DNA of 64,000 nucleotides from an uncultured Methanosarcinales archaeon (lineage in GTDB: Archaea; Nanobdellota; Nanobdellia; Woesearchaeales; CAZOXR01), in assembly GCA_964566535.1 (NCBI GenBank), contig CAZMIO010000004.1:1-64000 (forward strand), written 5' to 3'. The notes under the pieces were generated by a model. The model saw only the letters and a list, made by a program, of their open reading frames with translations, searched no databases and had not been told where the DNA came from. Numbering within the stretch: the stretch's first letter is position 1; each line of letters begins with the position of its first letter. Positions 19,601-60,034 of this stretch are shown piece after piece. The translations under genes and the position numbers were made by a program.

Positions 19601-20025
19601 AAACTTGCGTCCAATTGAAGGACATTAGTAATATTCCCACATGAGGGGCATTCAAATTTTGCAGAAGTTACTTGTGGACGAACATCAGATTTTTGACGAA
19701 CAACACCCTCTACTGTTAAGAGTTTTCCTAAATGGGCGCTTCTTATATTCCTTATATCTATCTTCTGGTTCTCTGGTAGGTTATTGAATCTAACTCTAAA
19801 ATTAATGATTTTTGAGTCAAGTTGTTCAACTGCTAGTTCCGCGGCTTTTATTACTTCTTCTGGTTGGTCTAGAAGAATGTTTGCTAGGTCTGGGTCGAAT
19901 TTTGAAAGTTCAGTAAATTCGACAACAAGAAATTGTTTATCTTTTCTTATGTTTGTTAATAGTTGTTCTTTATAGGTATCTTCAAACAATTCACCAAATT
20001 TTTTAATTTGCTCTGCCGCATCCAT
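16621..20025 (-). CDS. mcm: MCM replicative helicase with one intein
   Basis: Zn finger CPSCG, Walker A GDPGAGK|S, 'CCIDEMDKM', 'AAANPKFGRFD', 'PRQLEALVRL'. Confidence 0.97.
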   Translation of the reverse strand: MDAAEQIKKFGELFEDTYKEQLLTNIRKDKQFLVVEFTELSKFDPDLANILLDQPEEVIKAAELAVEQLDSKIINFRVRFNNLPENQKIDIRNIRSAHLGKLLTVEGVVRQKSDVRPQVTSAKFECPSCGNITNVLQLDASFKEPTKCGCGRKGKFRLLSKEMVDAQGIVLEEAPDQLEGGQQPKRMNLLLKEDLVSPLSERKTNPGSKILTTGIIKEVPIIMRTGAKSTRFDLIIEANFVEAMEESFLDVEISDEEKAAIKDLGSDPKVLTRLTNSIAPSIYGYEKIKESLILQLVGGVRKVRQDKVVSRGDTHILLVGDPGAGKCTNGNAKIILENGEITTMESFYEKNISFNNSQESTMKIFSINENGLNFTSQPLKFWRRKSPKKMIKIVTQTGNELIVTREHPIFTTRNGLIFSKKADEFKLGDYIATPSKIDILGSLQITPSDIEKTKANNKKKYVCKPIIDSDFARYLGYLIGDGYVRFSDTSGVIRFTNSDQDLLNDFENLTKKIFGCKVSNKTNKNNCWDYRWFSVDIVRILQKIFPNITKKSEGMGIPKLICKSPNYVIKDFLKSIFDCEGHIRKGRREIEFSSKSKELIYDIKYILLRFGIVSQVSSSMKCATNTLAKIKRRYYRIRISGEDVIKYFKEIGFVSTKKNEQLNKEIQKNLKINTNLNVVPELKELLSILRKKYGLSQNSFEITRSTYQHYEKGDRFPSYNKLKLICKRYNEIGKAKSDPLIDILNQTANSDIFWDKIRSIETIESNGDYVYDLEIDKVHNFVADGVVIHNSALLKRINRVAPKGIYISGKGISAAGLTASVVKDEFLKGWSLEAGAMVLSSNGICCIDEMDKMSPEDTSAMHEALENQTVSISKANIQATLVSRTTVLAAANPKFGRFDPYGIIAEQIELPPALINRFDLIFTIKDLPDEKKDKALSAHMLNLHQNPDTKEPDIPTDFIKKYVAYIRQNVSPQLTDEAIQEIQEYYMKMRAGGSGEGIKTIQISPRQLEALVRLSEAAAKIRLADKVTKKDSRKAIELLEYSMMQVGFDKETGKIDIDRIASGISASQRSNILVVKDVIKEVESRVGKTIPIEDVIEESKVKGVNEEKTEEIIEKLKRQGDIFEPKRGFISQIP
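17656..19047 (-). mobile_element. Intein (464 aa) with LAGLIDADG endonuclease and HTH, inserted in the MCM Walker A
   Basis: Begins CTNGN after GAGK; block B TREHPI; YLGYLIGDG and FLKSIFDCEG; ends VVIHN followed by Ser. Confidence 0.93.
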
Positions 20026-25396: not shown

Positions 25397-26290
25397 TTAT
25401 AGCTTTATCTTTAGTAAGTCGTAAGCATAAACTACATTATCAAAATAGTCTTTTGCGTCTTCTTCAATTTCTTTTAAGTCTTTGTATCTTGCACTAAAGT
25501 GAGTTAGGACAAGTTTTTTGGCATCTGCCCTATTAGCAATCAATGCAGCTTGTTTTGCAGTCATATGGTTGTGAGTTTCCGCTTTTTTCTCAAGATCTGA
25601 ATGGTATGTTGCTTCGCATATTAGTACATCTGCATCTTTTGCAAGTTTGTTACAATTATTGCAGGGAAGCGTGTCTGAGATCAATGCTATTTTCTTACCT
25701 TGTACAATGTAGGTTGTATCGGAAGGTCCTACCTTTTTCCCTTTCCAACTAATTGTTTTGTTTTGCTGGAGTTTGCCTAATAATGGGCCTTCTGGAATTC
25801 CAAGTTTATTTGTTTTTGAAACGTTAATCCTTCTTTTGTCTTTTTCAATAAAATTAAATCCGAACGTTTTTACTCCATGTTCAAGTTCTAGCGCTTCTAT
25901 TGAAAAATCATCATTTTCAAAGATAGTTCCTGGTTTTATTTCATGTATTACTAATTCCATATTTCTGTCAAATACAAATGCCTTGAACATATGTTCAAAA
26001 TGTTGTTTAGTCCCTTTTGGACCATATATTTCAAGGGTTTTAGTGTATTCAGATGCACTTAATGATTGGATCAATCCAGGAAGCCCTAATGTGTGGTCTC
26101 CGTGCCAATGGGTAATCAGTATTTTAGTCACTTTTGTTAATGGGATGTTTGCTATTTTGAACTGTCTTTGGGTTCCGTCACCACAGTCAATCAGGATTCC
26201 TTCAGATTTATAACTAATCAAAACAGCACTTTGGTTTCTTTCTTTTGTTGGTACCATTGAAGAAGTACCAAGAAATGTTATTTCTACCAT
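25397..26290 (-). CDS. rnz: Ribonuclease Z
   Basis: 'FLGTSSMVPTKERN', THWHGDH, exosite 'GIPEGP', 'THFSARY'. Confidence 0.96.
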   Translation of the reverse strand: MVEITFLGTSSMVPTKERNQSAVLISYKSEGILIDCGDGTQRQFKIANIPLTKVTKILITHWHGDHTLGLPGLIQSLSASEYTKTLEIYGPKGTKQHFEHMFKAFVFDRNMELVIHEIKPGTIFENDDFSIEALELEHGVKTFGFNFIEKDKRRINVSKTNKLGIPEGPLLGKLQQNKTISWKGKKVGPSDTTYIVQGKKIALISDTLPCNNCNKLAKDADVLICEATYHSDLEKKAETHNHMTAKQAALIANRADAKKLVLTHFSARYKDLKEIEEDAKDYFDNVVYAYDLLKIKL

Positions 26291-28178: not shown

Positions 28179-28201
28179 TTTTGAGGGTGTTTGTCCAGTG
28201 G
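28179..28201. repeat. 23-bp element, copy 1
   Basis: ttttgagggtgtttgtccagtgg, identical to 57070-57092. Confidence 0.9.
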
Positions 28202-46046: not shown

Positions 46047-47234
46047 ATGATGATTAAAAAAAAGGGTCAAGGCGGAGTTAATGCTGCTTTACTTGTCGCT
46101 ATCATTGCTGGTGTGATTATTCTTTATGTATTATTTCTTCCTGTAGGTGAAAAAGAGGAGCTATTTGGGGAAAGTACTAGTACTGGGGGAGGTAATGAGG
46201 GAGGGGGTGCTGATGACGTAATATTACTGTCTGAGGGTCCAGAACAGATAAGCCCATTTGAGAAACTTGAGGACATAGACATTCCTAATATTTATTTGAT
46301 TGAGGCGATTAATGCCAATGAGATAGAAAGAGTAAATGCATTTAGTGTGAGAAATGGGTTGTTTGATGATGTCAAGAAAGTAGTTCAGTTTGATATCGAT
46401 GATCTTGATAATACTGATAATGTTTTACTGTCGTTTAGCGCTGCTAAGAGAAAGGGCAATTTGATTATAAAACTAAACGATGAAGTGATTTATAATTTTG
46501 CTCCAAGTAAAGTAAATATTGTTGTGGAATTAAGAAAAGAGAAATTAGAGGGGATAAATTCCCTTGAGTTTAGCGTTTCATCTGTTGGAGCTGCTTTTTG
46601 GGCAACTAATGAATATGGTTTAGATGATGTTAGAATTATAGGAGACATAACTGATAGGAGTAGGCAGGAAAGTAGGAATATTTTTGAGATTACCAGTGGA
46701 GAATTTGAGAATCTTGAAAAGACAAGTTTAAGGTTCATCCCTTATTGTAGCAATATCGCAAACGTTGGTATTTTAGATGTGTTCGTAAACAATAGGAATG
46801 TTTATTCTGCTGCGCCAGTATGTGATGACCCAGTTAAGATTCCAATACTTGGCGCAACCGATATTGGAGAAAATAATGTAGTTTTCAAAACTTCAATGGG
46901 AAGCTATAGTATTGAGCAGATAACTGTGGAGCTGGAGTCTAAAGATGCAAGAAGTTTATCTTTCTTTTTCGAACTCGATGATGAACAGTATGCAGATGTT
47001 CAGGATGGAGATAAATCCGTTAATTTAACTATTGCCTTTGTTGACGATGATGAACTAAAAAAAGCAGACATTAAAGTCAATGGTAAAAGTTTCCCTAGAC
47101 AGCTTGACCAGGATGAGCCTTATTATAACAAACAATTGAGAAGTTCACAGCTTGAAGAAGGGAATAATTACATTGAGATAGTTCCAAAGAAATTACTTAA
47201 GATTGTTGATTTAGAATTGATATTATGGGATTAA
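46047..47234 (+). CDS. Protein with class III (pilin-like) signal peptide and acidic beta-rich extracellular part
   Basis: 'KKKGQGGVNAALLVAIIAGVIILYVLFLP'. Confidence 0.75.
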   Translation: MMIKKKGQGGVNAALLVAIIAGVIILYVLFLPVGEKEELFGESTSTGGGNEGGGADDVILLSEGPEQISPFEKLEDIDIPNIYLIEAINANEIERVNAFSVRNGLFDDVKKVVQFDIDDLDNTDNVLLSFSAAKRKGNLIIKLNDEVIYNFAPSKVNIVVELRKEKLEGINSLEFSVSSVGAAFWATNEYGLDDVRIIGDITDRSRQESRNIFEITSGEFENLEKTSLRFIPYCSNIANVGILDVFVNNRNVYSAAPVCDDPVKIPILGATDIGENNVVFKTSMGSYSIEQITVELESKDARSLSFFFELDDEQYADVQDGDKSVNLTIAFVDDDELKKADIKVNGKSFPRQLDQDEPYYNKQLRSSQLEEGNNYIEIVPKKLLKIVDLELILWD

Positions 47235-47306
47235 TTTTTGAGGTGAATTGGAGTTCTGAATTTTGGTAGTTGAAAATGGATAGTCTAAAAATAAATGAGG
47301 GTTTAA

Positions 47307-49964
47307 ATGGCTGGTCGTACTAGGAGGGCAGTAAACTGGACAGGCAGAAAAGTAGCACAAGGAAGTAAGGCTACTTGGGGAGGGGCAAAAAAGGCAAGAA
47401 GTTTTGCTGCTGGTGAAATTAGGGATGCTGCTTCAGCTGGTAAGGATCAAGTAGTTGATGCTGGATGGCGTGTTCGTGATAAGGTAGGAGATGGGGTTGA
47501 TAAGATAGGGGCCGCAAAGGATAAAGCTATAGATAAAATAAAGGATGCTCCTGGATATGCCTGGGGAAAAGGTAAGCAATTGGCAGGGTTTGGTTTAGGT
47601 GCTGGGTGGAGAGGAGTTAAAGGTGGGGCTAGAGCAGTAACAACTGGTTATGGATTGATGATTTTTTTTGGGTTGATTATACATATATTTCAGGTTTATA
47701 CTTCTAGGTTTGGACTTCTAGAAAGAACGTCAGCTTACTATATGATGCATATTATTTTATTTATTGTACTTGCTATTTTATACAAGGATGATGTACTTCC
47801 ATTAGGGATTATTTTAGTTGTGTATATATTTTTGCCCGGTGTTGTTGCTCTTGCTGGTATTTCAGCTGGCAGCATTTTTGGGGGAGGGGTGAACAGCCAA
47901 ACATTTATAGCATTATATGTTACAACATTTATGTATCCTCTTTGGTTTTTGTATGGGTGTTATAAATCTGAAGCTGGATTGGCAAAGTTTATTTTTAATG
48001 GATTTTTAATTACTTTAGTTGTTCTATTGTTTTTAGGGTTATCTGAAGGAGCTTATTTTAATGATGCTTTAGATGGTTTAGGAGAGGATACTGGTGTTGC
48101 GCCTCAAATAAATTCAATATATAATGGTTTTAGAAGTATGTATACAAATATAAAGACTTTTATTGAGACTACACCTGAGAATTTGCGGAAAGCGCAGGAG
48201 GATCTATTAGAATATGCGACGGGAGACTATTATAAGGGTCGTGTTGAGGAGAATGTTCGCGAGCAGATAGGGGTGTATATAGAGAATGTGCAGTCAGCTG
48301 AGAAGGAGTTTTATGTTGGTGACAGGGTTATTGTTTGGGGGACTTTGAAGGCAAAGACTTTGGATGAGACTGAGAAGTTTACTGTTGAAGCAGGCTGTGT
48401 GACTGATGAGGATGATGATAAGAATCCTGGTGAGGGTGGAGATATTAAACCTGGAAAACTTAAGAAGTTTAAAGTACAATCCTATGATGAGGAAGAGTTT
48501 AGCTGTGAATTTGAAGAAAATGAATTGGATAAAGGGACACATAAGATTTTACTGAATGCTGATTTTGATTTTACAACAATGGCTTATTTAAGAACTTATT
48601 TTATGGATGATAAAAGGAGAAGGGCAATGTTAAGAGAGGGTGCTGACATTCTTGGCAGCTTTAAGGTTAGTGAGAGAGATCCAATTGCAGTTTTTACAAA
48701 TGGACCTGTTAAGATCGGAGCTGAGACAACAAAGGCATTGCCTGTTGGTGTTTATGCGGGGAAGACTGTAAGGTTAGGTGTAACTTTAGAGAATCAATGG
48801 GAAGGAAAGATAAAACAAGTTAGGAGTATGACTATTGAAATTCCTGATGAGCTTGAGATTGATAGTTGTGATGAAGGGTATGATGCTAGTAAATCTGGTC
48901 CTGTTGAGGGAGGATTTATGAGATATGTTTTTGATTTTGAAGGAGATCCTAAATATCAAGATATTGATAAGTTTAGGTCAGTTAATTGTATTTTAACTGT
49001 TGGTCCAAGTTTTGAAGGACTTTTAGGAGATACTCTTCATCCGGCAACCAAGTACTATAGGATAAATGCTCATTATGATTACAGACTTGAGAGGCCTTTT
49101 GATATTGAGGTTAGGGATGCTAAGGGAGAGGGTGAAGGTGGTGGAGATACTAGTGGTGATGGTACGGATGGTGTTGATGATGGTGATGGTGCTGATGCGG
49201 ATGGTGGAGAAGTTGATGTCTCCTTTAGTAATGTTGATGATTTGAAATTTGTTGATTATGAAACTGGGGAAGAAGTTAGTGGTCCATTTAGTATGCCCTC
49301 TGAAGATAGACTTCTACTTTATCTTTGGTGGACATTGCCAAATATTGAGGATACGACAAAAAAAGTTAGTGGATATTTAATTAAGATATCTGAAGAAGTT
49401 ATAAGTAAGGGTAATTGGGATGAAATAAATTTATATAATGATATTGATTTTGCCGAACCTTTAAGTAACGAACGGAATAATCTGCTTTATAATTCAATTA
49501 TTGCAATCGCTGATGACGGATTTGAACCAGGTAGTAAAACTTTTTATTTAGGTATTAGACCGTATTTTGGAGATACTAATGATTTGGGTCCATTATCTAA
49601 TGTAGTAAGGTTTGAAGTTAACAAAATAGATGTTATTCCTCCTGCAAAGATAACTGAGTTAAGTGCTTCTATTTTTACTGGTTTTGGAAACGATGTGACC
49701 ATTGAATGGAAGGTGCCAGCGGATGATGGGATAATAGATAAATATGAGATAAGGCATTCGACTGATTCAACCAGTAATGAATGGGAAGATTTTGATTTCT
49801 TATTAGAACATCCTTCTGGGAATGAGGAGGCAGGGTCTGATATGTCTACTATTGATTTAAGTAGAGAAGAAGGAGTGCATTATTATGCTATAAAGGCAGT
49901 TGATGAAAGTGGGAATTGGGGAGAAATGTCTGATATTATTGCTGTAACGATTGATACAGATTAA
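47307..49964 (+). CDS. Large multi-pass membrane protein with Gly/Ala/Lys-rich N-terminus and C-terminal FN3-like domains
   Basis: ~5-6 TM helices at residues ~115-250; 'PPAKITELSA...VTIEWKVPADDG...YYAIKAVDESGNWGEMS'. Confidence 0.75.
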   Translation: MAGRTRRAVNWTGRKVAQGSKATWGGAKKARSFAAGEIRDAASAGKDQVVDAGWRVRDKVGDGVDKIGAAKDKAIDKIKDAPGYAWGKGKQLAGFGLGAGWRGVKGGARAVTTGYGLMIFFGLIIHIFQVYTSRFGLLERTSAYYMMHIILFIVLAILYKDDVLPLGIILVVYIFLPGVVALAGISAGSIFGGGVNSQTFIALYVTTFMYPLWFLYGCYKSEAGLAKFIFNGFLITLVVLLFLGLSEGAYFNDALDGLGEDTGVAPQINSIYNGFRSMYTNIKTFIETTPENLRKAQEDLLEYATGDYYKGRVEENVREQIGVYIENVQSAEKEFYVGDRVIVWGTLKAKTLDETEKFTVEAGCVTDEDDDKNPGEGGDIKPGKLKKFKVQSYDEEEFSCEFEENELDKGTHKILLNADFDFTTMAYLRTYFMDDKRRRAMLREGADILGSFKVSERDPIAVFTNGPVKIGAETTKALPVGVYAGKTVRLGVTLENQWEGKIKQVRSMTIEIPDELEIDSCDEGYDASKSGPVEGGFMRYVFDFEGDPKYQDIDKFRSVNCILTVGPSFEGLLGDTLHPATKYYRINAHYDYRLERPFDIEVRDAKGEGEGGGDTSGDGTDGVDDGDGADADGGEVDVSFSNVDDLKFVDYETGEEVSGPFSMPSEDRLLLYLWWTLPNIEDTTKKVSGYLIKISEEVISKGNWDEINLYNDIDFAEPLSNERNNLLYNSIIAIADDGFEPGSKTFYLGIRPYFGDTNDLGPLSNVVRFEVNKIDVIPPAKITELSASIFTGFGNDVTIEWKVPADDGIIDKYEIRHSTDSTSNEWEDFDFLLEHPSGNEEAGSDMSTIDLSREEGVHYYAIKAVDESGNWGEMSDIIAVTIDTD

Positions 49965-49965
49965 A

Positions 49966-51018
49966 ATGCAAACAAAAAAACTAATTTGGTTGTTGGTGGT
50001 TGTGGTAGTTTTGGCTGGGTGTGGTCAGAGGGGAGGAGGGGATACTCCAATAAAGAAAGAAGAGGTTTATACTGGCACTGAAGGTATAGTTATGAAGATG
50101 TTTAATGTGCCTGAGACAGTTGGTCAGAATGAGATATTTACAGCTGGGTTAGAAGTAGAGAACAAGGGAGCTTATCCTGATGATGAGGATAATTTTAAAG
50201 GCTATCTAGCTTTAGGATTGGATGGAGATCATATGGAAATCAAGGCTAATGGCTGGCGGAAGGATGAATGGGTGTATGGAAAAATTGGAGAGAATATTAA
50301 CGATAAAACAGTTAGATTTCAGGTTAAGGGAAAAACTCTTGATAATCCTTTAGGTGGGCTAGGGGTAACTGTTGTTACGCTGAATGCTAGGGAGCTAAGA
50401 GAAGATCAAAGCCAGTACCGTGATGTTGATGTTTTGATGACAGCCTGCTATAGATATCAGACAAAAGCTGTTCCAACTGTTTGTGTGGATTCATCACAAT
50501 TTAATTTAGTTGAGAAAGAGAAAGCCTGCGAAGTTGAAGATATTAAGCTGAAGGATCAGGGAGCTCCAATTGCTGTAACTAACATAGAACCTTCTATGCT
50601 GTATGATGATAGTGGAAATATAAAACCTATGTTTTTGATAACAATAGAGAATAAGGGAGATGGAGAGGTTATTAGTACGATGGAGATTGTTAGGGATGAA
50701 AAGGAGAAAATTAAAGAGGTAGATGGAAAAGTTGTGATTAAGTATAATGATAATATAATCCAGAAGATGTGCACATCACAAGGAGTAGATTATACTGAGT
50801 TTAATTCTGCTTTTATTACTGTTAAATTGAGGGGAACTCCTCTGGACTGTTCGCCTTATAGCGGCGTAATAAGGTTAAAGGAGGATGAGGGTATTGCAAG
50901 GTGTGTGCTGACGGATGGTATTGCGGAAGGAACTACTTATACAACTCCTTTAGAGATTACACTGGATTATGGCTATATGTCCACAGTTTCAGAGAAAGTA
51001 AGGGTTGAGAGGCGGTAA
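49966..51018 (+). CDS. Lipoprotein, paralog family member 1
   Basis: Lipobox LAGC; 'ACYRYQTKAVPTVCVD...QGAPIAV...LDYGY'. Confidence 0.75.
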   Translation: MQTKKLIWLLVVVVVLAGCGQRGGGDTPIKKEEVYTGTEGIVMKMFNVPETVGQNEIFTAGLEVENKGAYPDDEDNFKGYLALGLDGDHMEIKANGWRKDEWVYGKIGENINDKTVRFQVKGKTLDNPLGGLGVTVVTLNARELREDQSQYRDVDVLMTACYRYQTKAVPTVCVDSSQFNLVEKEKACEVEDIKLKDQGAPIAVTNIEPSMLYDDSGNIKPMFLITIENKGDGEVISTMEIVRDEKEKIKEVDGKVVIKYNDNIIQKMCTSQGVDYTEFNSAFITVKLRGTPLDCSPYSGVIRLKEDEGIARCVLTDGIAEGTTYTTPLEITLDYGYMSTVSEKVRVERR

Positions 51019-51082
51019 AGGCGTATCGTAACGAAACATTTATATAATAAAATCATGAAGTTAATATTTGGTAGTAATTAAA

Positions 51083-52201
51083 ATGAATAAAAAGACGTGG
51101 TGTATTATCGTAGTTGCTATAGTTGCTATTTTCTTGAGTGGATGCGGTCAGTTAGGTAATAACGATGAACCCACTAAAACTACTAATTATAGGGTTGGGA
51201 CTAAAGGATTGACTATAGATGTTCTTAATGCTCCTGATAGAATTTATGAAGGAGATCAACTTCAAATGATTATTGAGGTTGCTAATGATGGTGCGTATCC
51301 TCAACCAGATGGTAAGGGCGGTTTTGAAGGTGCTTTTAGCGCATATCTATGGTTTGGGGGTTATGATCCAAATATTTTATACATTACAGATGAATCAGAT
51401 ATAAGTGATATATCTGGTAAGGCAAAGACATATTCAAGTAAGGATGATGGTGCTAGATTGGGTCCTGTAAGAGACCCTACGGCCGGTGGAAGTGGAGGCA
51501 CTATTGTTAAAAGGTATGTAGACTTAACTACTACTGAGGGTATCTTATTAGAAGGAAAAAATCCATTAAATGTTGATGGAGGATTTAAGTCGTTTTTAGT
51601 TAATCTTAATGTAGATGATAACTCTCTTCCGAGTGCTACTCCTTCATATCCTACTCCTATTTTAATTGATTTAACATATAGATATAAGACATTTGCATCC
51701 CCTCTAGTGTGTATAGATTCTGACCCTGGAAGTACTTCAGTTAGAGAAAAAGTATGTGATGTTGGGCAATATAATGTGATTCCAACAGCGTCTCAAGGAG
51801 CCCCTGTTGCTGTTAGTAGAGTTGAGACAGAAGCGGCCCGTAATAGTCTAATAGTTAGGATATTTGTTGATAATGTGGGTGGTGGGAGAGTTATACCTTT
51901 GGTTGGCTCTACTGGTACTCTAGATTTTACTGATGATCCAAATAATGGTTATAGATACAGTTCACTAAATAAAGTGCTGATTAACGATGTGAAAATTTCA
52001 GGGGTTGGTTCTGCTGCAACATGTACTCCAGGCAAAACAGAGTTTATTGATGTTGATAGGGGAAGAGGGTACATTCTCTGTAGATTTGATCTAACTAGTT
52101 TAGGTAGTAGAGTTTACGAAACCCCTTTAGAAATTGAATTAGAGTATGGTTATCAGACTTCAATAAGAAAGGATATAGAAGTATTGGAAAGGATTATTTA
52201 A
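51083..52201 (+). CDS. Lipoprotein, paralog family member 2
   Basis: Lipobox LSGC; 'YRYKTFASPLVCID...QGAPVAV...LEYGY'. Confidence 0.75.
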   Translation: MNKKTWCIIVVAIVAIFLSGCGQLGNNDEPTKTTNYRVGTKGLTIDVLNAPDRIYEGDQLQMIIEVANDGAYPQPDGKGGFEGAFSAYLWFGGYDPNILYITDESDISDISGKAKTYSSKDDGARLGPVRDPTAGGSGGTIVKRYVDLTTTEGILLEGKNPLNVDGGFKSFLVNLNVDDNSLPSATPSYPTPILIDLTYRYKTFASPLVCIDSDPGSTSVREKVCDVGQYNVIPTASQGAPVAVSRVETEAARNSLIVRIFVDNVGGGRVIPLVGSTGTLDFTDDPNNGYRYSSLNKVLINDVKISGVGSAATCTPGKTEFIDVDRGRGYILCRFDLTSLGSRVYETPLEIELEYGYQTSIRKDIEVLERII

Positions 52202-52266
52202 ACAGTTAATTATAAATATAAGTAAAGGTATATTTAGCTATAATCATAAAAATGGAGGATGTTAAG

Positions 52267-53223
52267 ATGAAAAAATACCTAATTGCTGTTCTTGGTTTGA
52301 TTTTGTTTATTGCTGGTTGTGCTGGTGGCGATGCCCCAATATCAACAGCTGGAAAGCCATTTATTGGCGGAACAGATGCTATTGAATTTAACTTTTTAGA
52401 AGGAGCGCCACCACCTGAAGTGTATGATAAGGGAGAGTTTCCTTTTGAGATTACATTAAATGTTGAGAACAAAGGAGAACATGATTTAGTTGCAAATGAT
52501 ATTAAACTATCTTTATTGGGTTTTTATCCTACTGATTTTGGTGTACAATCTGCAGATATAACCAAAAAATTGAACGAAGAATTAACTGGGGCATACATTG
52601 ATTCTGAGGGAAATGAGATTCCTGGAGGAGTGACTTACGTGACTTTTGGAGATGCTGATGGATTTAGTTATACTCCCGAGTTGAAAGGCAATAATGAGTT
52701 TCCAGTTAGGGCAGAGGCTTGTTATAAGTATGGGACAGAGGCACAAGCTGATTTATGTTTCTTAAAGGATTTAACAGACACTAGAGACACAGTATGTGCT
52801 GTAAATGAGAATAAAGTAATTGAGAGTTCAAGTGCTCCAATCCAGATAGAGAATTTACAAGAAAATGTTGCTGGAGCTGATAAGATAACTTTCTCATTTG
52901 AGGTAGTACATAGGGGAACAGGAGCAATATCTGATCTTAGGACAGATGCTAATGGGCCAATATGTAGCGATGAGTTAGGTGAGAAAAACAAAGTTAAAGT
53001 GCTTGTTACAGGTCTTGAAGATTTAATAGACGGAACTCTTGATTGTGGCGGTATTGATGCTAATGACTATGCGACCCTATATGGTGGCAAAAGAATTGTA
53101 AGGTGTACTGCTAACTTAAAAGCAAGATCAAGTGATTTCGAGAGAAAGGTTTTTGTTGACTTAGAGTATAATTACAAGGAACACAAAGACACAAAGATTT
53201 TAGTAAAGCACGTAACTGGTTAA
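52267..53223 (+). CDS. Lipoprotein, paralog family member 3
   Basis: Lipobox IAGC; 'ACYKYGTEAQADLC...SSAPIQI...LEYNY'. Confidence 0.75.
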   Translation: MKKYLIAVLGLILFIAGCAGGDAPISTAGKPFIGGTDAIEFNFLEGAPPPEVYDKGEFPFEITLNVENKGEHDLVANDIKLSLLGFYPTDFGVQSADITKKLNEELTGAYIDSEGNEIPGGVTYVTFGDADGFSYTPELKGNNEFPVRAEACYKYGTEAQADLCFLKDLTDTRDTVCAVNENKVIESSSAPIQIENLQENVAGADKITFSFEVVHRGTGAISDLRTDANGPICSDELGEKNKVKVLVTGLEDLIDGTLDCGGIDANDYATLYGGKRIVRCTANLKARSSDFERKVFVDLEYNYKEHKDTKILVKHVTG

Positions 53224-53239: not shown

Positions 53240-55786
53240 CTAATTTGTTATAAGAACTACTTGTGAGAGTAATGTTTCTAACTGAATAAATTCATCTGAC
53301 CCTTCTGTCATCCTAAACTCTATTTCACCGCACTTTTCGACCAATTCCATCTTTTTTCTACCATCTAACTCCAAGTCTAAAATTGCCTTTTGGATTTGCT
53401 TTATCATATCAATTCCAGATAAACCATAGTTAAGCATTGTATCTAATAGTTTTTTTCTTGCTTCTATGAAATTATTCTTAAGACACAAATTTAAAATATC
53501 TTTTACTTCTTCTGGCCTTGCAGATGAGACTAATGAATAAATTAGTTCTTCATTTATTTCTTTGCTAATTGCAGCAGACGATTGCAATATATTTTCAAGT
53601 TTTCTACAGTCCCCTCCAGATATTTCATAAAGTGCTTCCTTAACTGAATCTGTAATTTTAAGCTGTTCTTGTTCTGCTATTATGTTAATTAACTCAATTA
53701 TCTCCTCTTTGTCCAACGGCTTAAATCTAAATACAGCACATCTACTTTGGATAGGATCAATTATTTTTGATGAGTAATTTGCACTTAAAATAAATCTAGT
53801 AGTTCTAGTATAATTCTCCATCGTTCTTCTTAGAGCTTGCTGAGCTTCTCTCGTTAGGGCGTCGCAGTTATGGACAACAATGTCATTTGCAATGAATCTT
53901 TTATTTTCTGTTGATAAACAATAAACATATCCTGGATCTTCTATCTTTTCAATAGACGTTAGATAATGATAAGCTGAATCTCCCATCTTTAATCTTTCTC
54001 TCCATTCTTTGAAGTGAGGTACTGGTCTAAATGTGTATATGTACTTCCCTAATCCTTTTTTCCATTCCAAATATCTTATTACCTCTTTAGAAGTTCTATC
54101 TTTATATGTGCAATATCTATAACCTATTTTGGTTAGGAACTTATATATGTTCTCCATAGAATTGGTTATCCAAATTCTACCTTCAATCGTCTTTGTTTTA
54201 TCTTTTCTTAATGATTTATAGCCAGGACATATCCTATATTTTGTATTTATTCCAAGATCTTTGAATAGTTTCTGAATTTGTTCTAAGTAATCTATCAAGT
54301 CGTCTTTTAAATCTTCTCTTTTGGATATACCTACTGTGATAGGTTTAACTGTTCTTCCTTGAAATTTAGGCTCATATCCATCCCCTCCTAAAAATGCTGC
54401 AAGATACTCAATTTTAATTGAATCTTCACCGCCCATAATCCAAGAGGGTATTTTTACAATGTTATCGGTTTTTTTACCTACAGGTGCACCTAGAGAATAA
54501 AACAAACTTAATAATTCTATCTTATAAGCACCAAATGACCAACATTCTCCTTTTTTCCATCTGGAATGTCTTATATTACCTAATGCATGGTATCCTATCT
54601 TATTAATGTCATTCTTTATTTCTTTAAGATCTTCTTCTTTTCCTGAAAAGAAAAGTTGTTTTGTTTTTAGTGAGAGACATCCGTCACTAAATAGGTGCCC
54701 AAGGAGTCTTGCACAGACTTTGGCATTTTCTAATTTTAGAGGAAATAATTCTTTATTTTTCAATTGTGTTAGTATATATTCTTGATTAGAATTATTTTGA
54801 GTTCTTTTTTTTGTATATAAATTATCCAATGATTTACCAACATTATTTACCAAATAAAACTTTTTATCTTCTTTTTTAACAATTCCTTCCTTAATTAATG
54901 AAATATAATAAGGATTGTTTTTATCGCTTAGAATAGATGTTATCTTTGCAGAACTAACATTACTTTCTTTTGTGATTTCTTCTCTTATCAATCCTTGCGG
55001 AAATTTCCCTAATAGCTCAATAATTTCTTTTTCAGGAGATTTTCCAATGTATCTTTCTTTCTTTCTAATTTCTTGACATAATCCTATTAGATTGTAGTTA
55101 ATTATCCCGGATGTGGAGATATCTGAATTTTCAAGAGCAGGTTTTATTTGAGGACATAATATCAAATCCTTGATTTTAAGTTGGTCTGCTCTTTTCCAGC
55201 CACCTATTGTTAAAAATTCATGATTTCCCGTTGCTAGAATTTCTTTATTATGTATTTTAATCTTATAAAATCCTTGATTTGATTGGTGAGGTATTTTCAT
55301 GACCCCTAATGTGTTAAGGAAAATAAGCTCACCATTATCATCTATCGAGAGAGTTTTATATTCTTTAAAATCATAATTGGCAACGAAATCACCTAATTTA
55401 ACATTCTTAATTTCATTGTCCGATTTTATAGTTATCATCGAATCATAAGCTAAACATTCATCCAAATAAATTATCTTGAATGGAACATCTCCAATTGCTC
55501 TTGTTCTTGCAAAATCCTTTACTTTGTTTCTGATGATGTCAATTCCTCTTTCATCAGATGCATTTAACTCTAGAAAGTTTTGGTGCCAATCTTTATCAAA
55601 TAGTTTTTTTGCAATTACTAATGATAATGAAGTTTTTCCTATTCCTGCCGGACCTGCGAATAACAAATGAGGCATGTTTTTTTGTTCGACAAATGCCTTT
55701 ATTCGTTTGACTATCTCTTTCTGACCTTTTATGTCTGAGAACTCTTTTGGCCTGTATTTTTCAGTCCAGATTGCATTAGATTCCAT
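53240..55786 (-). CDS. rfcS: Replication factor C small subunit with one intein
   Basis: 'WTEKYRP', GPAGIGKT, 'ELNASDERG', LDE|CDALT, 'IQSRC'. Confidence 0.97.
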   Translation of the reverse strand: MESNAIWTEKYRPKEFSDIKGQKEIVKRIKAFVEQKNMPHLLFAGPAGIGKTSLSLVIAKKLFDKDWHQNFLELNASDERGIDIIRNKVKDFARTRAIGDVPFKIIYLDECLAYDSMITIKSDNEIKNVKLGDFVANYDFKEYKTLSIDDNGELIFLNTLGVMKIPHQSNQGFYKIKIHNKEILATGNHEFLTIGGWKRADQLKIKDLILCPQIKPALENSDISTSGIINYNLIGLCQEIRKKERYIGKSPEKEIIELLGKFPQGLIREEITKESNVSSAKITSILSDKNNPYYISLIKEGIVKKEDKKFYLVNNVGKSLDNLYTKKRTQNNSNQEYILTQLKNKELFPLKLENAKVCARLLGHLFSDGCLSLKTKQLFFSGKEEDLKEIKNDINKIGYHALGNIRHSRWKKGECWSFGAYKIELLSLFYSLGAPVGKKTDNIVKIPSWIMGGEDSIKIEYLAAFLGGDGYEPKFQGRTVKPITVGISKREDLKDDLIDYLEQIQKLFKDLGINTKYRICPGYKSLRKDKTKTIEGRIWITNSMENIYKFLTKIGYRYCTYKDRTSKEVIRYLEWKKGLGKYIYTFRPVPHFKEWRERLKMGDSAYHYLTSIEKIEDPGYVYCLSTENKRFIANDIVVHNCDALTREAQQALRRTMENYTRTTRFILSANYSSKIIDPIQSRCAVFRFKPLDKEEIIELINIIAEQEQLKITDSVKEALYEISGGDCRKLENILQSSAAISKEINEELIYSLVSSARPEEVKDILNLCLKNNFIEARKKLLDTMLNYGLSGIDMIKQIQKAILDLELDGRKKMELVEKCGEIEFRMTEGSDEFIQLETLLSQVVLITN
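53867..55456 (-). mobile_element. Intein (530 aa) with LAGLIDADG endonuclease and wHTH insert, in the RFC Walker B
   Basis: Begins CLAYDS after YLDE; block B TGNHEF; LLGHLFSDG and YLAAFLGGDG; ends IVVHN followed by Cys. Confidence 0.93.
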
Positions 55787-55839
55787 TATTTTATGGGAAC
55801 GTATATCGGTTTAAAAAGTTTTATTTTTTTAGAAAAAAA

Positions 55840-56103
55840 TTAAACAATATCTTCTTCAGCAATAACCATAAAATCGCCAATTGCGATGACTGCTGAGAAA
55901 GGTATTAGAATTTTGCCTTCTTTGTTCTTTTCTAGCTCTAGTTTTTGAGTGTAAGATGTTGGATTACTTAATACCATGTGAATGAGCTCTCCAGAACGTG
56001 TTTCAAAGATTATATCTCCAACTTCACCAAATCTTTTTCCTGTTTTGCTGACCACAGTCTTGCTAATTAATTGTTTTGAAAATTTTTTATCTTCTTCAGC
56101 CAT
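55840..56103 (-). CDS. PRC-barrel domain protein (CdpB-like)
   Basis: 'KTVVSKTGKRFGEVGDIIFETRSGEL...IPFSAVIAIGDFMVI'. Confidence 0.85.
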   Translation of the reverse strand: MAEEDKKFSKQLISKTVVSKTGKRFGEVGDIIFETRSGELIHMVLSNPTSYTQKLELEKNKEGKILIPFSAVIAIGDFMVIAEEDIV

Positions 56104-56179
56104 AAAAATCCCTTTTCTATATTAGTATGGTAATGAATGAACCTAGTTATATATAAACTTTTTGCTTCAATGAAATAGA

Positions 56180-57037
56180 TTATTTATTGCCGAGTAGTTG
56201 TAATTCCCTCATGCGCTTTTCAATTGTTTTTTGGTTAAAACAATGTTCTTTTATGCCACATTTGTTGCATTTATTCTGATTCTTTTCAAAATCAGGAATA
56301 ATCTTTCCACTTAGTAATGATTTTACTTTTTTTATTAATTCTAATACTTCTTCCCTTAGAAACGGATTGATTGATATGTGTCTGCGTTGCTTTGTGTCTA
56401 AATAAGTTATGAAACCTTCTTTTACTTGAGTATTATGATGTTCTTCTAACAGTAATGAGTATGCTGCTAACTGGATCTTATGGTTGGGCCATACTCCCTC
56501 TTTTGGACAAGAGCCAGTTTTGAGCTCAATTGGTACCATTCCTTTTTCATAGACCTCAATTTGGTCTACAATGCCCCTAAGGCCCAGTTTATCTGATGAG
56601 ATGCGTTGTTCAGATATTATTTTAGGAGTTAGTTTTTCCCACAACTCTTTTCCATATATCTTATTGAGTTGGATAAATCCCAATATGTTGAATGCTCTTG
56701 TTTCTGATTCATCTTTAATTAATGGCCATACGCTTTTGAAGAGATCTTCTGGCTTAACATTGAATTTTGCTAAACTATTTTTGTTTTTTCTTATTGCTTC
56801 TCTTGTTATCTCAGTGTAATTGAGCTCATATAATCTTCTTATCTGCTCAAAATCTAGTTTTTTTGTAATCGAGATTACAATTGACTCTTCTTTTTCGTTA
56901 ATTGCTTCGTAGATCTTATGTCTGATGGAGCCCTTTATTGTCGCTTCCTTCATCGGCTCAAAGAACTTTAGAACATATTGAAGATAGAGCTTACGCTGGC
57001 AGTACGAATAAGATGACAGTGCCGAAACCGAAATCAT
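56180..57037 (-). CDS. Solo Cas4/Dna2-like PD-(D/E)xK nuclease with Fe-S cluster
   Basis: N-terminal 'YCQRK', 'LRGIVD', 'PIELKTG', 'QLAAY', C-terminal CxxC-x5-C; no cas genes or array nearby. Confidence 0.88.
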   Translation of the reverse strand: MISVSALSSYSYCQRKLYLQYVLKFFEPMKEATIKGSIRHKIYEAINEKEESIVISITKKLDFEQIRRLYELNYTEITREAIRKNKNSLAKFNVKPEDLFKSVWPLIKDESETRAFNILGFIQLNKIYGKELWEKLTPKIISEQRISSDKLGLRGIVDQIEVYEKGMVPIELKTGSCPKEGVWPNHKIQLAAYSLLLEEHHNTQVKEGFITYLDTKQRRHISINPFLREEVLELIKKVKSLLSGKIIPDFEKNQNKCNKCGIKEHCFNQKTIEKRMRELQLLGNK

Positions 57038-57069
57038 TGTTTTTAGAATTTTGAGGAGGTTTATATATG

Positions 57070-57092
57070 TTTTGAGGGTGTTTGTCCAGTGG
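57070..57092. repeat. 23-bp element, copy 2
   Basis: ttttgagggtgtttgtccagtgg, identical to 28179-28201. Confidence 0.9.
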
Positions 57093-57791
57093 TTAGCTAG
57101 CTAGTCTTTCTTCTAAACTTAGTCTTAGATTTGTTCTTGCGTGGTGTAAAGTAGCTTTTACGGTGCCAACTGAAATTTCTAGTTTATCTGCAATCTGTCT
57201 TATTTTAAGGAAATGGTAATAGTGGAGCATTGTTATTTGTCTTTGTCTTGGGGATAATTCTCCCACAACATCATAGACAGCTTCTACTTTTTGATTTAAT
57301 GCCGCATTATCTTCTGGGGAATCTCCTGGGTCAACAACCTTTCCAATCTCGAACTGGTACGGTTGGCCTTCTTCCCTTGGTTCATTAGTTAATGGTGCAC
57401 CATCATAAAAAACAGATTGACGGCCCCATTTTCTTCTGGAGTCTATGAACGTATAGTAAACTGCTGATAAAGTATATTTGATATAATTTCCTTTTTTTGG
57501 TGGGGTGGTGTTTTTGAACATTCTGAAGAATGTCTCTTGAACAATCTCTTCAGCTTCATCACGGCTTTTGGTGAGTGAAGTGGCAAAATGGTGGAGATAG
57601 CTACTATTTCCTAGGAGAACTTGAGCTGCCCTTTCTCTTCGTATATCTTGACTTAATGCTAGATTATATAGTTTGAATCCTTGATCTTTTAATTGGTCTG
57701 AAGTTATTTGACCAGTGTCTAGAATTTCAGTTAGTTCAGGATCAGAATCTGCAGAGCTTGTTTGCGGTCGGTATTGCATTTTGGGGCTCAC
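57093..57791 (-). CDS. ECF-type sigma-70 family protein
   Basis: Region 2 'LHHFATSLTKSRDEAEEIVQETF...FIDSRRK'; region 4 'LSPRQRQITMLHYY...IRQIADKLEISVGTVKATLHHARTNLR'. Confidence 0.85.
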   Translation of the reverse strand: MSPKMQYRPQTSSADSDPELTEILDTGQITSDQLKDQGFKLYNLALSQDIRRERAAQVLLGNSSYLHHFATSLTKSRDEAEEIVQETFFRMFKNTTPPKKGNYIKYTLSAVYYTFIDSRRKWGRQSVFYDGAPLTNEPREEGQPYQFEIGKVVDPGDSPEDNAALNQKVEAVYDVVGELSPRQRQITMLHYYHFLKIRQIADKLEISVGTVKATLHHARTNLRLSLEERLAS

Positions 57792-57873
57792 AAGGAGTAT
57801 TAATGCTCAGAATTATATAAATTAGTTGTAAATTGCAGATAAATTTATATAATCACTGAATATTGTTGATTGT

Positions 57874-58833
57874 ATGAATAATAAAGAAAAGATTGAGTTG
57901 ATAAAGAGGAATACTGTTGAAGTTGTTAATGAGGACGAGTTAAATGAAGTTCTGAAGAAAAGCAAGCCAGTTGTTTACTGCGGGTATGAAGTTTCAGGTG
58001 AGGTACATCTGGGTCACATGGTAACTACAACTAAGCTTCTTGATTTTCAAAAGGCAGGATTCAAAGTTAAGATTCTATTTGCAGACTGGCATACTTGGTT
58101 GAATAAGAAAGGGGATTGGGATGAAATACATAAGTTAGAGAAATTGTGGGAAAAGGCATTTATTGGATTGGGCTTAGACAAGGCTGAGTTTGTTTTAGGT
58201 TCAAAATTACAAAGGAATATGGAATATATTGATGATGTTATGCAGATAGCAGTAAAGACAACCATCAACAGATCCTTAAGAAGTATGCAGGAAGTTGCAA
58301 GAGACATCGAGCATGCTCATGTTTCTCAAGTTATCTATCCATTCATGCAGATAGTTGATATTAAGGCATTGAAAGTAGATGTTGCTTATTCAGGAATAGA
58401 ACAAAGGAAGATTCACGGTCTTGCAAGGGAGATATTACCTAAGTTAGATTACAAAGCCCCAGTTTTAGTTCATACTCCATTGATACCTTCTTTACAATCT
58501 GGGGAGAAGATGAGTTCATCTAAACCTGAGAGTTTGATTTCGGTAAGAGATAGTGAAGAAGAGATTAAGAAGAAGATCAAAAAAGCCTATTGTGTTGAAG
58601 GAGAGGTAGCGGATAATTCAATACTTTCAATTGCTAAGTTAATCGTGTTTCCAAGAATTAAGAAGTTAGATATCAAAAGACCTGCAAAGTTTGGTGGAAA
58701 TGTTAGTTTCAAGAGTTATGAAGAACTTGAGAAAGCATTCGTTGATAAGAAGTTACATCCAATGGACCTAAAGACAGCAGTTGGAGGCCATCTAATCAAG
58801 ATATTAGAACCAGTAAGAAAGGTTTTTAGTTAG
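57874..58833 (+). CDS. tyrS: Tyrosyl-tRNA synthetase (archaeal type)
   Basis: 'YCGYEVSGEVHLGH', 'YPFMQIVDI', KMSSS, 'LHPMDLK'. Confidence 0.96.
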   Translation: MNNKEKIELIKRNTVEVVNEDELNEVLKKSKPVVYCGYEVSGEVHLGHMVTTTKLLDFQKAGFKVKILFADWHTWLNKKGDWDEIHKLEKLWEKAFIGLGLDKAEFVLGSKLQRNMEYIDDVMQIAVKTTINRSLRSMQEVARDIEHAHVSQVIYPFMQIVDIKALKVDVAYSGIEQRKIHGLAREILPKLDYKAPVLVHTPLIPSLQSGEKMSSSKPESLISVRDSEEEIKKKIKKAYCVEGEVADNSILSIAKLIVFPRIKKLDIKRPAKFGGNVSFKSYEELEKAFVDKKLHPMDLKTAVGGHLIKILEPVRKVFS

Positions 58834-60034
58834 TTTGTTCTATAACTGCTAAAGTATAATTCTTTGTCAAGTATCTTTTTGCCGTTTCTTTAATATCTTT
58901 CTTTGTTATACTCTTTATTTTGCTAAGATAAGCTTGGTTCAGTGATGAATCTTTAATCATTTCCCAGAAGTTTAGTTCGTCTGCAGTATGTCTTGTATCT
59001 TCTTTTTCTAATATATATGAACCTTCTAAGAATCCTTTCGCATCATCAAGTTCTTCTGTTGTTATATTTTTCAGCTTGTCAAATTCATTTAAGATTATGC
59101 CAATTGCTTTCTTAATGTTTTTCTTGTCAGTATTTAGGTAGACTGCAAATGTTCCAAAATCTTTGTTTGGGTCGTGGTAGACATTAACCTCATAAGCTAG
59201 TCCTCGTTTGCTTCTTATCTCTTCAACTATCTTTCCTGATTGTCCCCGTGCAAGTAATGCCTTAATAATATCTAAAGTGTAAGAATCTTTGTGGAGCCTA
59301 ATCGGTGTTTTGTATCCTAAGACCATGTAGGAGTTTAGAATTTTCTTCTTCTCGATTGTTTTTTGTATTGTTGTTTGTTGGGGTTCTTCTGTTGTTAGTT
59401 CTTTGATTGGTCCAGGTTTTATTTTTGAAAAAGCCCTTTCTATTTTTTCTTTTGGATCACTTATTCCCCCTACAACTGAAATAATCATGTTGTTAGGAAC
59501 ATAATATTTTTTGAAATAATTTTGGAGGTCTTTTTTTGTAATACCTTTTACAGTTTTTATCGTTCCATAAGCTGGGTACTTAGAAGGGTGCGTCTTAAAT
59601 AGAGTTTGAGTAAATAAAACCCATTGATGGAATCTTGGTTCATCGGTAACCATATTTATTTCCTTTAGGATTATGTTTCGTTCTTTTTCAATTGACTTAT
59701 CTTTGAATAATGGATTTTGAGTAATATCCGATATTATGTCTAGGGCTATATCAAAATGTTTTTTTTGAACTTTAATATAAAATGTAGTTCTCTCATTTGA
59801 TGTATATGCATTTAGTTCTCCGCCTAATCTTTCGATCTCATTTGCTATTATTGTACTATTAGCCCTGTTTTTTGTCCCTTCAAATACCATATGTTCTAAG
59901 AAATGAGAGATTCCCAAAATCTTTTTTGTTTCGTTATTTGAACCAACCTTGACTGTAACGCAGATAGTTACAGAGTCCGATGACTTTCGATCAAAGATCA
60001 ATGTTATTTTATTCTTCAACGTATATTTTTGCAT
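58826..60034 (-). CDS. M16 family zinc peptidase
   Basis: 'GISHFLEHMVFEGT' (HxxEH), 'LNAYTS', 'IRSKRGLAY'. Confidence 0.93.
   Translation of the reverse strand: MQKYTLKNKITLIFDRKSSDSVTICVTVKVGSNNETKKILGISHFLEHMVFEGTKNRANSTIIANEIERLGGELNAYTSNERTTFYIKVQKKHFDIALDIISDITQNPLFKDKSIEKERNIILKEINMVTDEPRFHQWVLFTQTLFKTHPSKYPAYGTIKTVKGITKKDLQNYFKKYYVPNNMIISVVGGISDPKEKIERAFSKIKPGPIKELTTEEPQQTTIQKTIEKKKILNSYMVLGYKTPIRLHKDSYTLDIIKALLARGQSGKIVEEIRSKRGLAYEVNVYHDPNKDFGTFAVYLNTDKKNIKKAIGIILNEFDKLKNITTEELDDAKGFLEGSYILEKEDTRHTADELNFWEMIKDSSLNQAYLSKIKSITKKDIKETAKRYLTKNYTLAVIEQTN

Follow-up and report, generated by a model that had tools for sequence, protein, structure and literature searches.

An intact sigma-70 gene of the ECF type in the chromosome of a DPANN archaeon

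Results

An ECF-type sigma gene between a Cas4-like nuclease gene and tyrS

Bacterial transcription is initiated with sigma factors, the defining factors of this step, whereas archaea rely on the TATA-binding protein (TBP) and the transcription factors TFB and TFE. Here, we analysed a 64,000-nt stretch (hereafter the window) of contig CAZMIO010000004.1 from an uncultured archaeon of the GTDB order Woesearchaeales, and found that positions 57093..57791 on the minus strand, located between genes for a Cas4-like nuclease and tyrosyl-tRNA synthetase (TyrRS, tyrS), hold a genuine, intact gene of the sigma-70/extracytoplasmic function (ECF) type in an archaeal chromosome. The uninterrupted open reading frame (ORF), stop codon included, encodes 232 aa from a GTG at 57791, while the start chosen by gene callers (ATG 57779) yields a version four residues shorter (P0001, 228 aa). 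Domain scans matched Pfam Sigma70_r4_2 (47.8 bits, cut-off 25.7, residues 171-222), Sigma70_r4, Sigma70_ECF (24.9 bits, cut-off 21.1) and, marginally, Sigma70_r2 (24.9 bits, cut-off 24, residues 65-121), and the NCBIfam model of the sigma70-ECF superfamily, TIGR02937, reached 66.6 bits (cut-off 42.9) over residues 55-224. These matches bear out the sigma region 2 and the region 4 helix-turn-helix (HTH) that a preliminary description of the DNA, made from the sequence without database searches, had assigned to the 232-aa ORF. None of the narrower NCBIfam ECF subfamily or equivalog models attained its own cut-off (best, TIGR02983, 69.8 versus 141.55), and the Pfam scan returned no Sigma70_r3 or r1 match in the protein. 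With sigma-2, sigma-4, a linker lacking region 3 and a superfamily score above threshold, the product belongs to the ECF type (group 4), in which a nearby cognate anti-sigma gene, absent here, is typical, not obligatory. It falls outside the one-domain LuxR/GerE class of HTH proteins, given a GerE score of 15.9 bits (cut-off 23.5) and the additional sigma-2 domain.

The protein is divided into four parts, all encoded on the minus strand. The N-terminal region (residues 1-54; 57630..57791) comprises residues 1-16, predicted to be disordered, a helix at 18-26 and the beginning of a long helix (31-61). It is followed by the sigma-2 domain (residues 55-129; 57405..57629), placed by its Sigma70_r2 match and by alignments and modelled with block-mean predicted local distance difference test (pLDDT) values of 80-96, by a low-confidence linker (residues 130-158; 57318..57404; block-mean pLDDT 56-62) and by the sigma-4 HTH (residues 159-231; 57099..57317; block-mean pLDDT 78-98, mostly above 90). 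Regions 2.1-2.2 contain the motif DEAEEIVQETF, and in regions 2.3-2.4, YTLSAVYYTFIDSRRK, the usual W and N are replaced according to the alignments. Because the AED..QETF motif begins at residue 79 here and, in a consensus built from 125 homologs, at about position 44, the N-terminal surplus over a typical ECF amounts to about 35 aa, shorter than the ~55 aa given in the preliminary description.

An AlphaFold2 model built on 125 sequences (mean pLDDT 81.3) consists of the disordered tip (1-16), a helical sigma-2 with helices across residues 63-129, the low-confidence linker and a four-helix sigma-4. Foldseek comparison with the PDB gave 32 matches at E<=1e-3, those listed being sigma-factor chains, and the top ranks were occupied exclusively by ECF sigmas (SigL, SigH, SigE, SigW, AlgU and sigma-E); the region-4 structures 3hug and 2h27 matched the model at a TM score of 0.8. 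By sequence, the closest solved structure is the Mycobacterium tuberculosis ECF SigL (6dv9_F, E 7e-9).

The gene is embedded in archaeal DNA

The window carries archaeal genes for Cdc6/Orc1, PolD DP1/DP2, MCM, RFC, TBP, aIF2-beta, Hjc, a tRNA-intron endonuclease, an eRF1-family (aRF1-like) protein and RNase P p30, and the sigma gene is 57 kb from the start of its contig, which measures 99,444 nt and is part of a 1.45-Mb genome (91% complete, 0.09% contamination). At least part of 55800-59000 is carried by 20 public runs from 15 studies, five of them flagged as possible sources, and the runs carrying the locus are labelled as marine, seawater or hydrothermal-vent metagenomes. Comparing Logan contigs of four runs with the window showed that the Cas4-like/sigma junction is spanned by window-identical contigs in X7 (56207-57484, record 19) and X8 (56449-57460, record 28), and the sigma/tyrS junction in X7 (57477-57905, record 20) and X12 (57390-58075, record 5). 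A chimeric assembly at the locus, against which the preliminary description had proposed a check of read and coverage continuity, is thus very unlikely, both junctions being spanned in independent runs. Among the 40 listed of the 63 differences in the four runs, none is a variant position in the sigma gene.

The transcription machinery of the genome is likewise archaeal. The archaeal RpoA1 model had a single match above cut-off (C3:85367-87937, 1227 bits), and the bacterial rpoC (beta-prime) model remained below cut-off and found the same RpoA1 locus only, in a genome that is 91% complete. TBP is encoded in the window and TFB on contig C1. With only an archaeal RNA polymerase (RNAP) and with TBP and TFB, the sigma protein is most likely not a bacterial-style initiation subunit. 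The clamp coiled-coil of RpoA1 is the homolog of the bacterial beta-prime clamp helices; this segment is present here and hardly varies among 30 of the order's genomes, and relatives that have sigma genes do not differ in it from those that have none. No match to the zf-HC2 anti-sigma family (PF13490) was found in the 91%-complete genome; other anti-sigma families were not searched.

As a side observation on these factors, the TFB gene (C1:31432-31992, minus strand) encodes two TFIIB repeats (86 and 79 bits) and has a weak, sub-threshold match to the sigma-70/ECF model at region-4 positions (E 1.3e-4, model 128-163).

A TATA box at the genome-wide position precedes the sigma gene

The sigma gene has a TATA box, TTTATATAA (57813..57821, minus strand), that begins exactly 30 nt before its GTG, and the divergent tyrS carries the same box (57844..57852, plus strand), likewise at -30 relative to its ATG. 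Paired, the boxes make up a perfect 12-nt inverted repeat (57812-57823 / 57842-57853). In a crude set of 1278 ORFs with an ATG start and a length of 100 aa or more, with 1272 upstream regions, TATA-like motifs peaked at -30 with 145 starts, compared to 2-22 at other positions, and 386 motifs started at -32 to -28. This pile-up 28-32 nt before start codons indicates that most genes of the genome are leaderless, and the exact -30 spacing from the GTG favours this start over ATG 57779. The mRNA of the sigma gene is therefore probably leaderless and transcribed from a standard archaeal TATA promoter, and we infer expression of the gene from these sequence signals. The TATA-like box reported in the preliminary description proved to be TTTATATAA, at the genome-wide mode. 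Third-position GC content (GC3, 0.262; z -0.53) and codon fit (z -0.40) of the sigma gene are both typical of the genome, and the GC content of the ORF (0.385; z +0.88) is slightly above that of its neighbours but within range. Bacterial-type promoters are not in excess near the gene (8 sites, versus 9.8 +/- 3.3 in shuffles).

A distant homolog, several paralogs and a family widespread in the order

A word-indexed search of 5.8 billion clusters retrieved the sigma protein itself, whose 90%-identity cluster has one member, and four weak matches. Exhaustive phmmer searching of 1.84 billion representatives gave 5999 matches at E<=1e-3, only 7 of which reached E<=1e-10, the best non-self match being P0006 (29% identity, E 8e-15). 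P0156 (242 aa), a full-length cluster mate of P0006, aligns from sigma residue 20 onwards at 28-30% identity, which means that the N-terminal extension is common to P0156. Identity between the two proteins is 27% in the N-terminal region (52 aligned positions), 28% in sigma-2, 32% in the linker and 33% in sigma-4. Searching with P0156 identified only bacterial ECFs of about 30% identity in genome contigs and, in metagenome contigs, a single 1389-nt contig (L171) that holds its first 123 residues. There, the start of P0156 overlaps the end of an RNase Z-like gene, and since this neighbour shares 65% identity with the copy in the window (25397-26290), P0156 derives from a related archaeon and from another genomic site. 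P0156 has diverged far more from the sigma protein than has its RNase Z-like housekeeping neighbour from the copy in the window. A gene lacking homologs in related genomes, as considered in the preliminary description, is not what these searches indicate, because P0156 comes from a related archaeon and includes the N-terminal extension. Judged by these comparisons, the sigma gene adds a highly divergent member to the sigma family of these archaea.

Within its own genome, TIGR02937 gave three matches above cut-off and one below, which makes the sigma gene one of three to four sigma-family paralogs. The others encode a 281-aa protein with regions 2, 3 and 4 (53, 51.1 and 53 bits; C8:8310-9155, minus strand; L001 1471-2316), a 316-aa protein in which region 4 is accompanied by a weak region 3 (C13:29574-30524, plus strand; L003 1204-2154) and a 496-aa protein in which a duplicated N-terminal segment precedes the sigma-like C-terminus (C1:3406-4896, plus strand; L004 583-2073). 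All four genes have a TATA-like box near -30 and typical GC3. By eye, the paralog on C8 stands beside a bacterial-looking S-adenosylmethionine synthetase gene and a radical-SAM-like ORF.

Across the order, TIGR02937 scored above cut-off in 85 of 201 genomes (81 of 197 when four unpublished genomes, G182, G112, G132 and G121, are left aside), and in a phylum-wide sample in 79 of 201. Most copies in the order are of the longer region 2-3-4 type, often within much longer open frames, and the matches are often found in tandem arrays or in open frames of 400-1700 aa, which suggests fusions to other domains. Examples of such arrays and long frames are G039:C3:16405-20160, with four in a row, G192:C6:9240-11698 and G182:C53 (an unpublished genome); at G113:C5:268776-269492 the sigma match lies in an open frame of up to 1763 aa.

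Other genomes of the order yielded at least 21 more short ECF-like ORFs, and a tree was calculated from 61 rows, namely the sigma protein, P0156, 21 ECF-like proteins of the order, 12 named bacterial ECFs and 26 unnamed representatives, after removal of 64 of 125 rows with at least 55% identity to a retained row. The tree has hardly any resolution, a star being given to 1 of its 58 inner branches. The archaeal ECF-like proteins end in much longer terminal branches (1.2-2.8) than the bacterial ones (0.5-1.1). Holding the sigma protein and P0156 together gave a log-likelihood 38 units above that of the free quick search, and forcing all 23 archaeal rows into one clade lowered it by 20 without being rejected by the approximately unbiased test (p-AU 0.245). 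A single origin of the 23 archaeal ECF-like rows is therefore possible, and the clade of DPANN sequences for which a phylogeny had been proposed in the preliminary description is neither rejected nor supported.

The sigma gene occupies a variable slot between two conserved genes

The downstream neighbour is a gene for a Cas4-like PD-(D/E)XK nuclease (56180..57037, minus strand) and the upstream, divergent neighbour an archaeal-type tyrS (57874..58833, plus strand). Both are conserved, and in relatives of the same order they form a divergent pair standing head-to-head. The gaps beside the sigma gene, 55 bp on the Cas4-like side and 82 bp on the tyrS side, leave no space for an adjacent anti-sigma gene, and together with the domain scan they agree with the flanking genes and the missing anti-sigma gene of the preliminary description. 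In G017, G005 and G011 nothing but gaps of 98, 127 and ~200 bp, respectively, separates the Cas4-like gene from tyrS, and in other relatives the slot contains a 120-aa and a 203-aa ORF (G002), two small ORFs (G006) or one 292-aa ORF (G003). G004 has the closest TyrRS (65% identity); its gene adjoins PRC-barrel and RFC genes there, and the Cas4-like gene was not found in this 83%-complete genome. The slot looks like a recurrent insertion point, and by this synteny the sigma gene was inserted on its own into a slot of variable content between conserved divergent genes. Neither the ORFs nor the Pfam scan revealed an integrase, capsid or other mobile-element gene beside it, and PADLOC had no match for the sigma gene and matched the neighbour to Cas4 models only.

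Inspection by eye suggested a decarboxylase-like cargo in the slot of G002 (L255 2409-3655), a small toxin-antitoxin-like pair in G006 (L259 2395-3054) and a dehydrogenase-like cargo in G003 (L260 3354-4232). A second perfect 12-nt inverted repeat, 57183-57194 TTTATCTGCAAT / 57832-57843 ATTGCAGATAAA, has one arm within the part coding for sigma-4 and the other between the two TATA boxes, and the 12-mer occurs 4 times in the genome (~0.6 expected). It was considered as the flank of an insertion and rejected, as one arm lies inside the ORF, and is probably due to chance.

A repeated promoter element follows the sigma stop codon

The promoter of the Cas4-like gene (57060..57092, minus strand) is composed of a 23-nt element, CCACTGGACAAACACCCTCAAAA (57092-57070), which begins directly after the sigma stop codon, and a TATA box (57068-57060). 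The genome contains 15 exact matches to CCACTGGACANNNACCNNCNNAA and one variant copy, each followed by T(A/T)TAAA, while the reversed pattern gave 0 matches in the genome and 0 of 60 relatives matched. The consensus is CCACTGGACA-NNN-ACC..C..AA followed by the TATA box, in the form CCAC-TGGACA-N17-T(A/T)TAAA. Of these copies, two are located in the window (57070-57092 and 28179-28201, both on the minus strand) and the others elsewhere in the genome, at C1:195843, 203907, 206298 and 224225; C2:115462 and 125350; C3:35070, 45971 and 175269; C10:18213, 19287 and 41499; C11:23763; and C14:9688. Genes downstream of the element include seven LAGLIDADG-like genes, some with HTH domains, two Bro-N genes, a tyrosine recombinase gene, genes for an RNase_H_2-superfamily protein and the Cas4-like nuclease, and some unknowns. 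A longer repeat of ~130 nt is common to six copies. The TGGACA-17 nt-T(A/T)TAAA spacing resembles a bacterial -35/-10 promoter; the second box doubles as an archaeal TATA box whose distance from the leaderless starts is the usual one, and a sigma-70 promoter scan does not flag the element. It could be the operator of a regulon, or a promoter spread with homing-endonuclease-like genes.

Loose ends of X12 contigs at 57059/57092 had been taken up as a possible sigma-less strain variant; they were traced to C10:41499, which has the same 23-nt promoter element.

Discussion

What the sigma protein may do

The reading that we favour, and to which we give about an even chance, is that of a long-resident gene whose product acts as a sequence-specific DNA-binding regulator through sigma-4, without a bacterial polymerase. 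An ECF-type gene encoding sigma-2 and sigma-4 would have been inserted singly between the Cas4-like and TyrRS genes and would now be driven, as a leaderless mRNA, by a standard archaeal TATA promoter; the well-preserved HTH of sigma-4 would read DNA, and the diverged sigma-2, together with the family-specific N-terminal extension, would serve another contact. Both the DNA binding and the independence from binding to the RNA polymerase core are what we infer. Support comes from the profile scores: Sigma70_r2 reached 24.9 bits here and 16.4 in P0156, with a median of 40.5 in the 21 ECF-like proteins of the order and 51-78 in the 12 named bacterial ECFs, although the latter comparison is tempered by the fact that the bacterial set was selected by similarity to P0156 and is not a neutral sample. 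Sigma70_r4_2, in turn, reached 47.8 bits here and 61.6 in P0156. Relative to bacterial ECFs, sigma-2 thus seems much eroded against the Pfam profile and sigma-4 well kept. The gene also looks maintained, with an intact frame, a canonical promoter, host-like codons and an architecture kept in a relative. A repurposed DNA-binding regulator was one of the options in the preliminary description; it fits the lack of a bacterial RNAP, the eroded region 2 and the preserved region 4, and falls short of being demonstrated.

Several points weigh against this reading. The sigma-2 fold is confidently predicted and EAEEIVQETF is kept, so that a contact to the polymerase clamp is possible. Compared with P0156, sigma-4 (33%) is barely more conserved than sigma-2 (28%) or the N-terminal region (27%), and the case that only the DNA-binding half matters is made by profile scores alone. 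Cluster, phmmer and run-contig searches returned no close variants of the gene, and none of the 22 runs returned for the stretch around the locus is an RNA run.

It is also conceivable, if unlikely, that the sigma protein acts on the archaeal RNAP itself, with sigma-2 docking onto the clamp coiled-coil of RpoA1 and steering initiation together with or instead of TFB. The confidently predicted sigma-2 fold and its kept region 2.1-2.2 motif would allow this, as would the clamp coiled-coil, present and nearly invariant in the 30 genomes, and the persistence of sigma genes in about 40% of the sampled genomes, with no bacterial RNAP candidate in this one. On the other side, region 2 scores far below bacterial ECFs and has lost the usual W and N of regions 2.3-2.4, and the identity of the clamp segment with or without sigma genes gives no sign of co-adaptation. 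A complex prediction of sigma residues 17-232 with RpoA1 clamp residues 50-420, both supplied as alignments and run without controls, gave a score of 0.00 and a mark of 0.32 and speaks neither for nor against such docking. Archaeal RNAPs are not known to employ sigma factors (PMC7289017).

We consider equally unlikely that the gene is a neutral or decaying, functionless remnant of an old bacterial transfer. Its extreme divergence (29% for the best non-self match and only 7 matches at E<=1e-10 among 1.84 billion representatives) would be expected of such a remnant, as would the marginal region 2, the long archaeal terminal branches and the 28-30% identity of the sigma pair beside 65% for the neighbouring housekeeping protein. 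Yet the 232-codon frame is intact and combined with a canonical promoter, host-like codons and a confident two-domain model, the same architecture including the N-terminal extension recurs in a related archaeon, and the sequence is identical in runs from several studies.

Somewhat harder to sustain is the proposal that the gene is cargo of a virus or another mobile element of these archaea, serving the element and not the cell. The single-gene insertion into a slot whose cargo differs among relatives, including a small two-gene pair in G006, would suit such an origin, as would the frequent tandem arrays of sigma genes in relatives and, in a 2025 study, two rpoS-annotated genes in DPANN viruses, one of them in a prophage (Nat Commun 2025, PMC12647753). 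Those genes are likewise sigma-family genes linked to DPANN genomes; by description they are rpoS-like and virus-borne, whereas the gene reported here is of the ECF type and lies between housekeeping genes. In contrast to what mobile cargo would predict, no integrase, capsid or other mobile-element gene adjoins it, its codon usage is host-like and PADLOC gave no match for it. A viral affinity through the phage sigma family phrog_1740 (79 bits) was considered and discarded, since 12 chromosomal bacterial ECFs score 81-132 with the same family, reflecting generic ECF likeness only.

The element beside the gene raises a further idea, that of hybrid promoter recognition, in which sigma-4 of sigma proteins would recognise a -35-like box at a fixed distance of 17 bp ahead of an archaeal TATA box and thereby aid TBP, TFB and the archaeal polymerase onto a specific set of genes. 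The element, with at least 16 copies, is a candidate target of such a system and nothing yet ties it to any sigma protein; given that it is absent from 60 relatives, many of which have sigma genes, we regard this as a long shot.

Still more improbable is the second option of the preliminary description, that the protein is exported as an effector and takes over the RNA polymerase of a bacterial partner. A bacterial-type architecture in a cell without a bacterial polymerase might invite it, as might the symbiotic lifestyle that DPANN archaea are generally thought to have (PMC8204110); the known hosts of DPANN are, according to the same paper, archaea. The N-terminus is hydrophilic and predicted to be disordered with no hydrophobic segment visible (no dedicated signal-peptide prediction was run), and erosion is strongest in region 2, the half that binds the core. 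With several paralogs per genome and members in about 40% of the sampled genomes, the sigma genes of the order look like a lineage-wide domesticated family and not like a special weapon, and the effector proposal is without support. Finally, that a bacterial fragment was joined to archaeal DNA by assembly or binning is scarcely credible, as the slightly raised GC content of the ORF (0.385) and otherwise only the unusual gene content speak for it, against window-identical contigs from independent runs across both junctions, a position 57 kb inside a 99-kb contig rich in archaeal markers, 0.09% contamination, typical GC3 and codon fit and an archaeal promoter.

Relation to known sigma genes

Sigma-70 genes in DPANN archaea are not new. 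Castelle et al. 2021 (Front Microbiol, PMC8204110) described them as prevalent in Woesearchaeota (fam00359), excluded mis-binning, found no anti-sigma factors and left the mechanism unclear; the surprise expressed in the preliminary description was to this extent overstated. The present gene shares with those described there a contig with archaeal markers, the exclusion of mis-binning, the lack of an anti-sigma factor and the presence of TBP and TFB. It is likened to them by description, not by membership in fam00359, and differs in being a short ECF-type copy with an N-terminal extension and at most 29% identity to anything searched. What our analysis adds is the insertion in a slot, the TATA box at -30 with typical codon usage, the three to four paralogs and P0156 as a relative sharing the N-terminal extension.

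With bacterial ECFs of group 4, such as SigL (6dv9_F), SigH (5zx2_F), Bacillus subtilis SigW (5wuq) and Escherichia coli sigma-E (1or7), the protein shares the sigma-2/sigma-4 architecture without region 3. Unlike these, it resides in a host without a bacterial RNAP match or a zf-HC2 anti-sigma match, has a region 2 of 24.9 bits compared to 51-78, and is preceded by archaeal expression signals. N-terminal extensions are also found in ECFs of Planctomycetes, where, according to PMC8103513, they are proposed to be regulatory and are unstudied. As described there, these proteins likewise have an extra segment before sigma-2 and no neighbouring anti-sigma gene; they are bacterial and act with bacterial RNAP, and the likeness to the extension here is one of position.

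A sigma family that is kept, multiplied and placed under archaeal promoters in about 40% of the order's genomes has two possible meanings: either a bacterial initiation module has taken on another role, or sigma-like proteins are able to address the archaeal polymerase. Either would be relevant to the evolution of transcription, and this locus alone does not decide between them. It does provide a clean test case, being a single-gene insertion with a defined promoter and no confounding bacterial polymerase, and offers in addition a second homolog and a nearby candidate DNA element.

Other features of the window

The genes for the RFC small subunit (53240-55786) and for MCM (16621-20025), both on the minus strand, each contain an intein bearing a LAGLIDADG-type insert; the RFC genes of the relatives G004 and G029 are without that intein (316 aa in L252). 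On the plus strand, 46047-53223 is filled by five consecutive ORFs of 323-885 aa with no Pfam match at E<=1e-5. The last three of these match overlapping stretches of a locus in G004 and thus look like paralogs, and the entire block is syntenic in G004 and G029.

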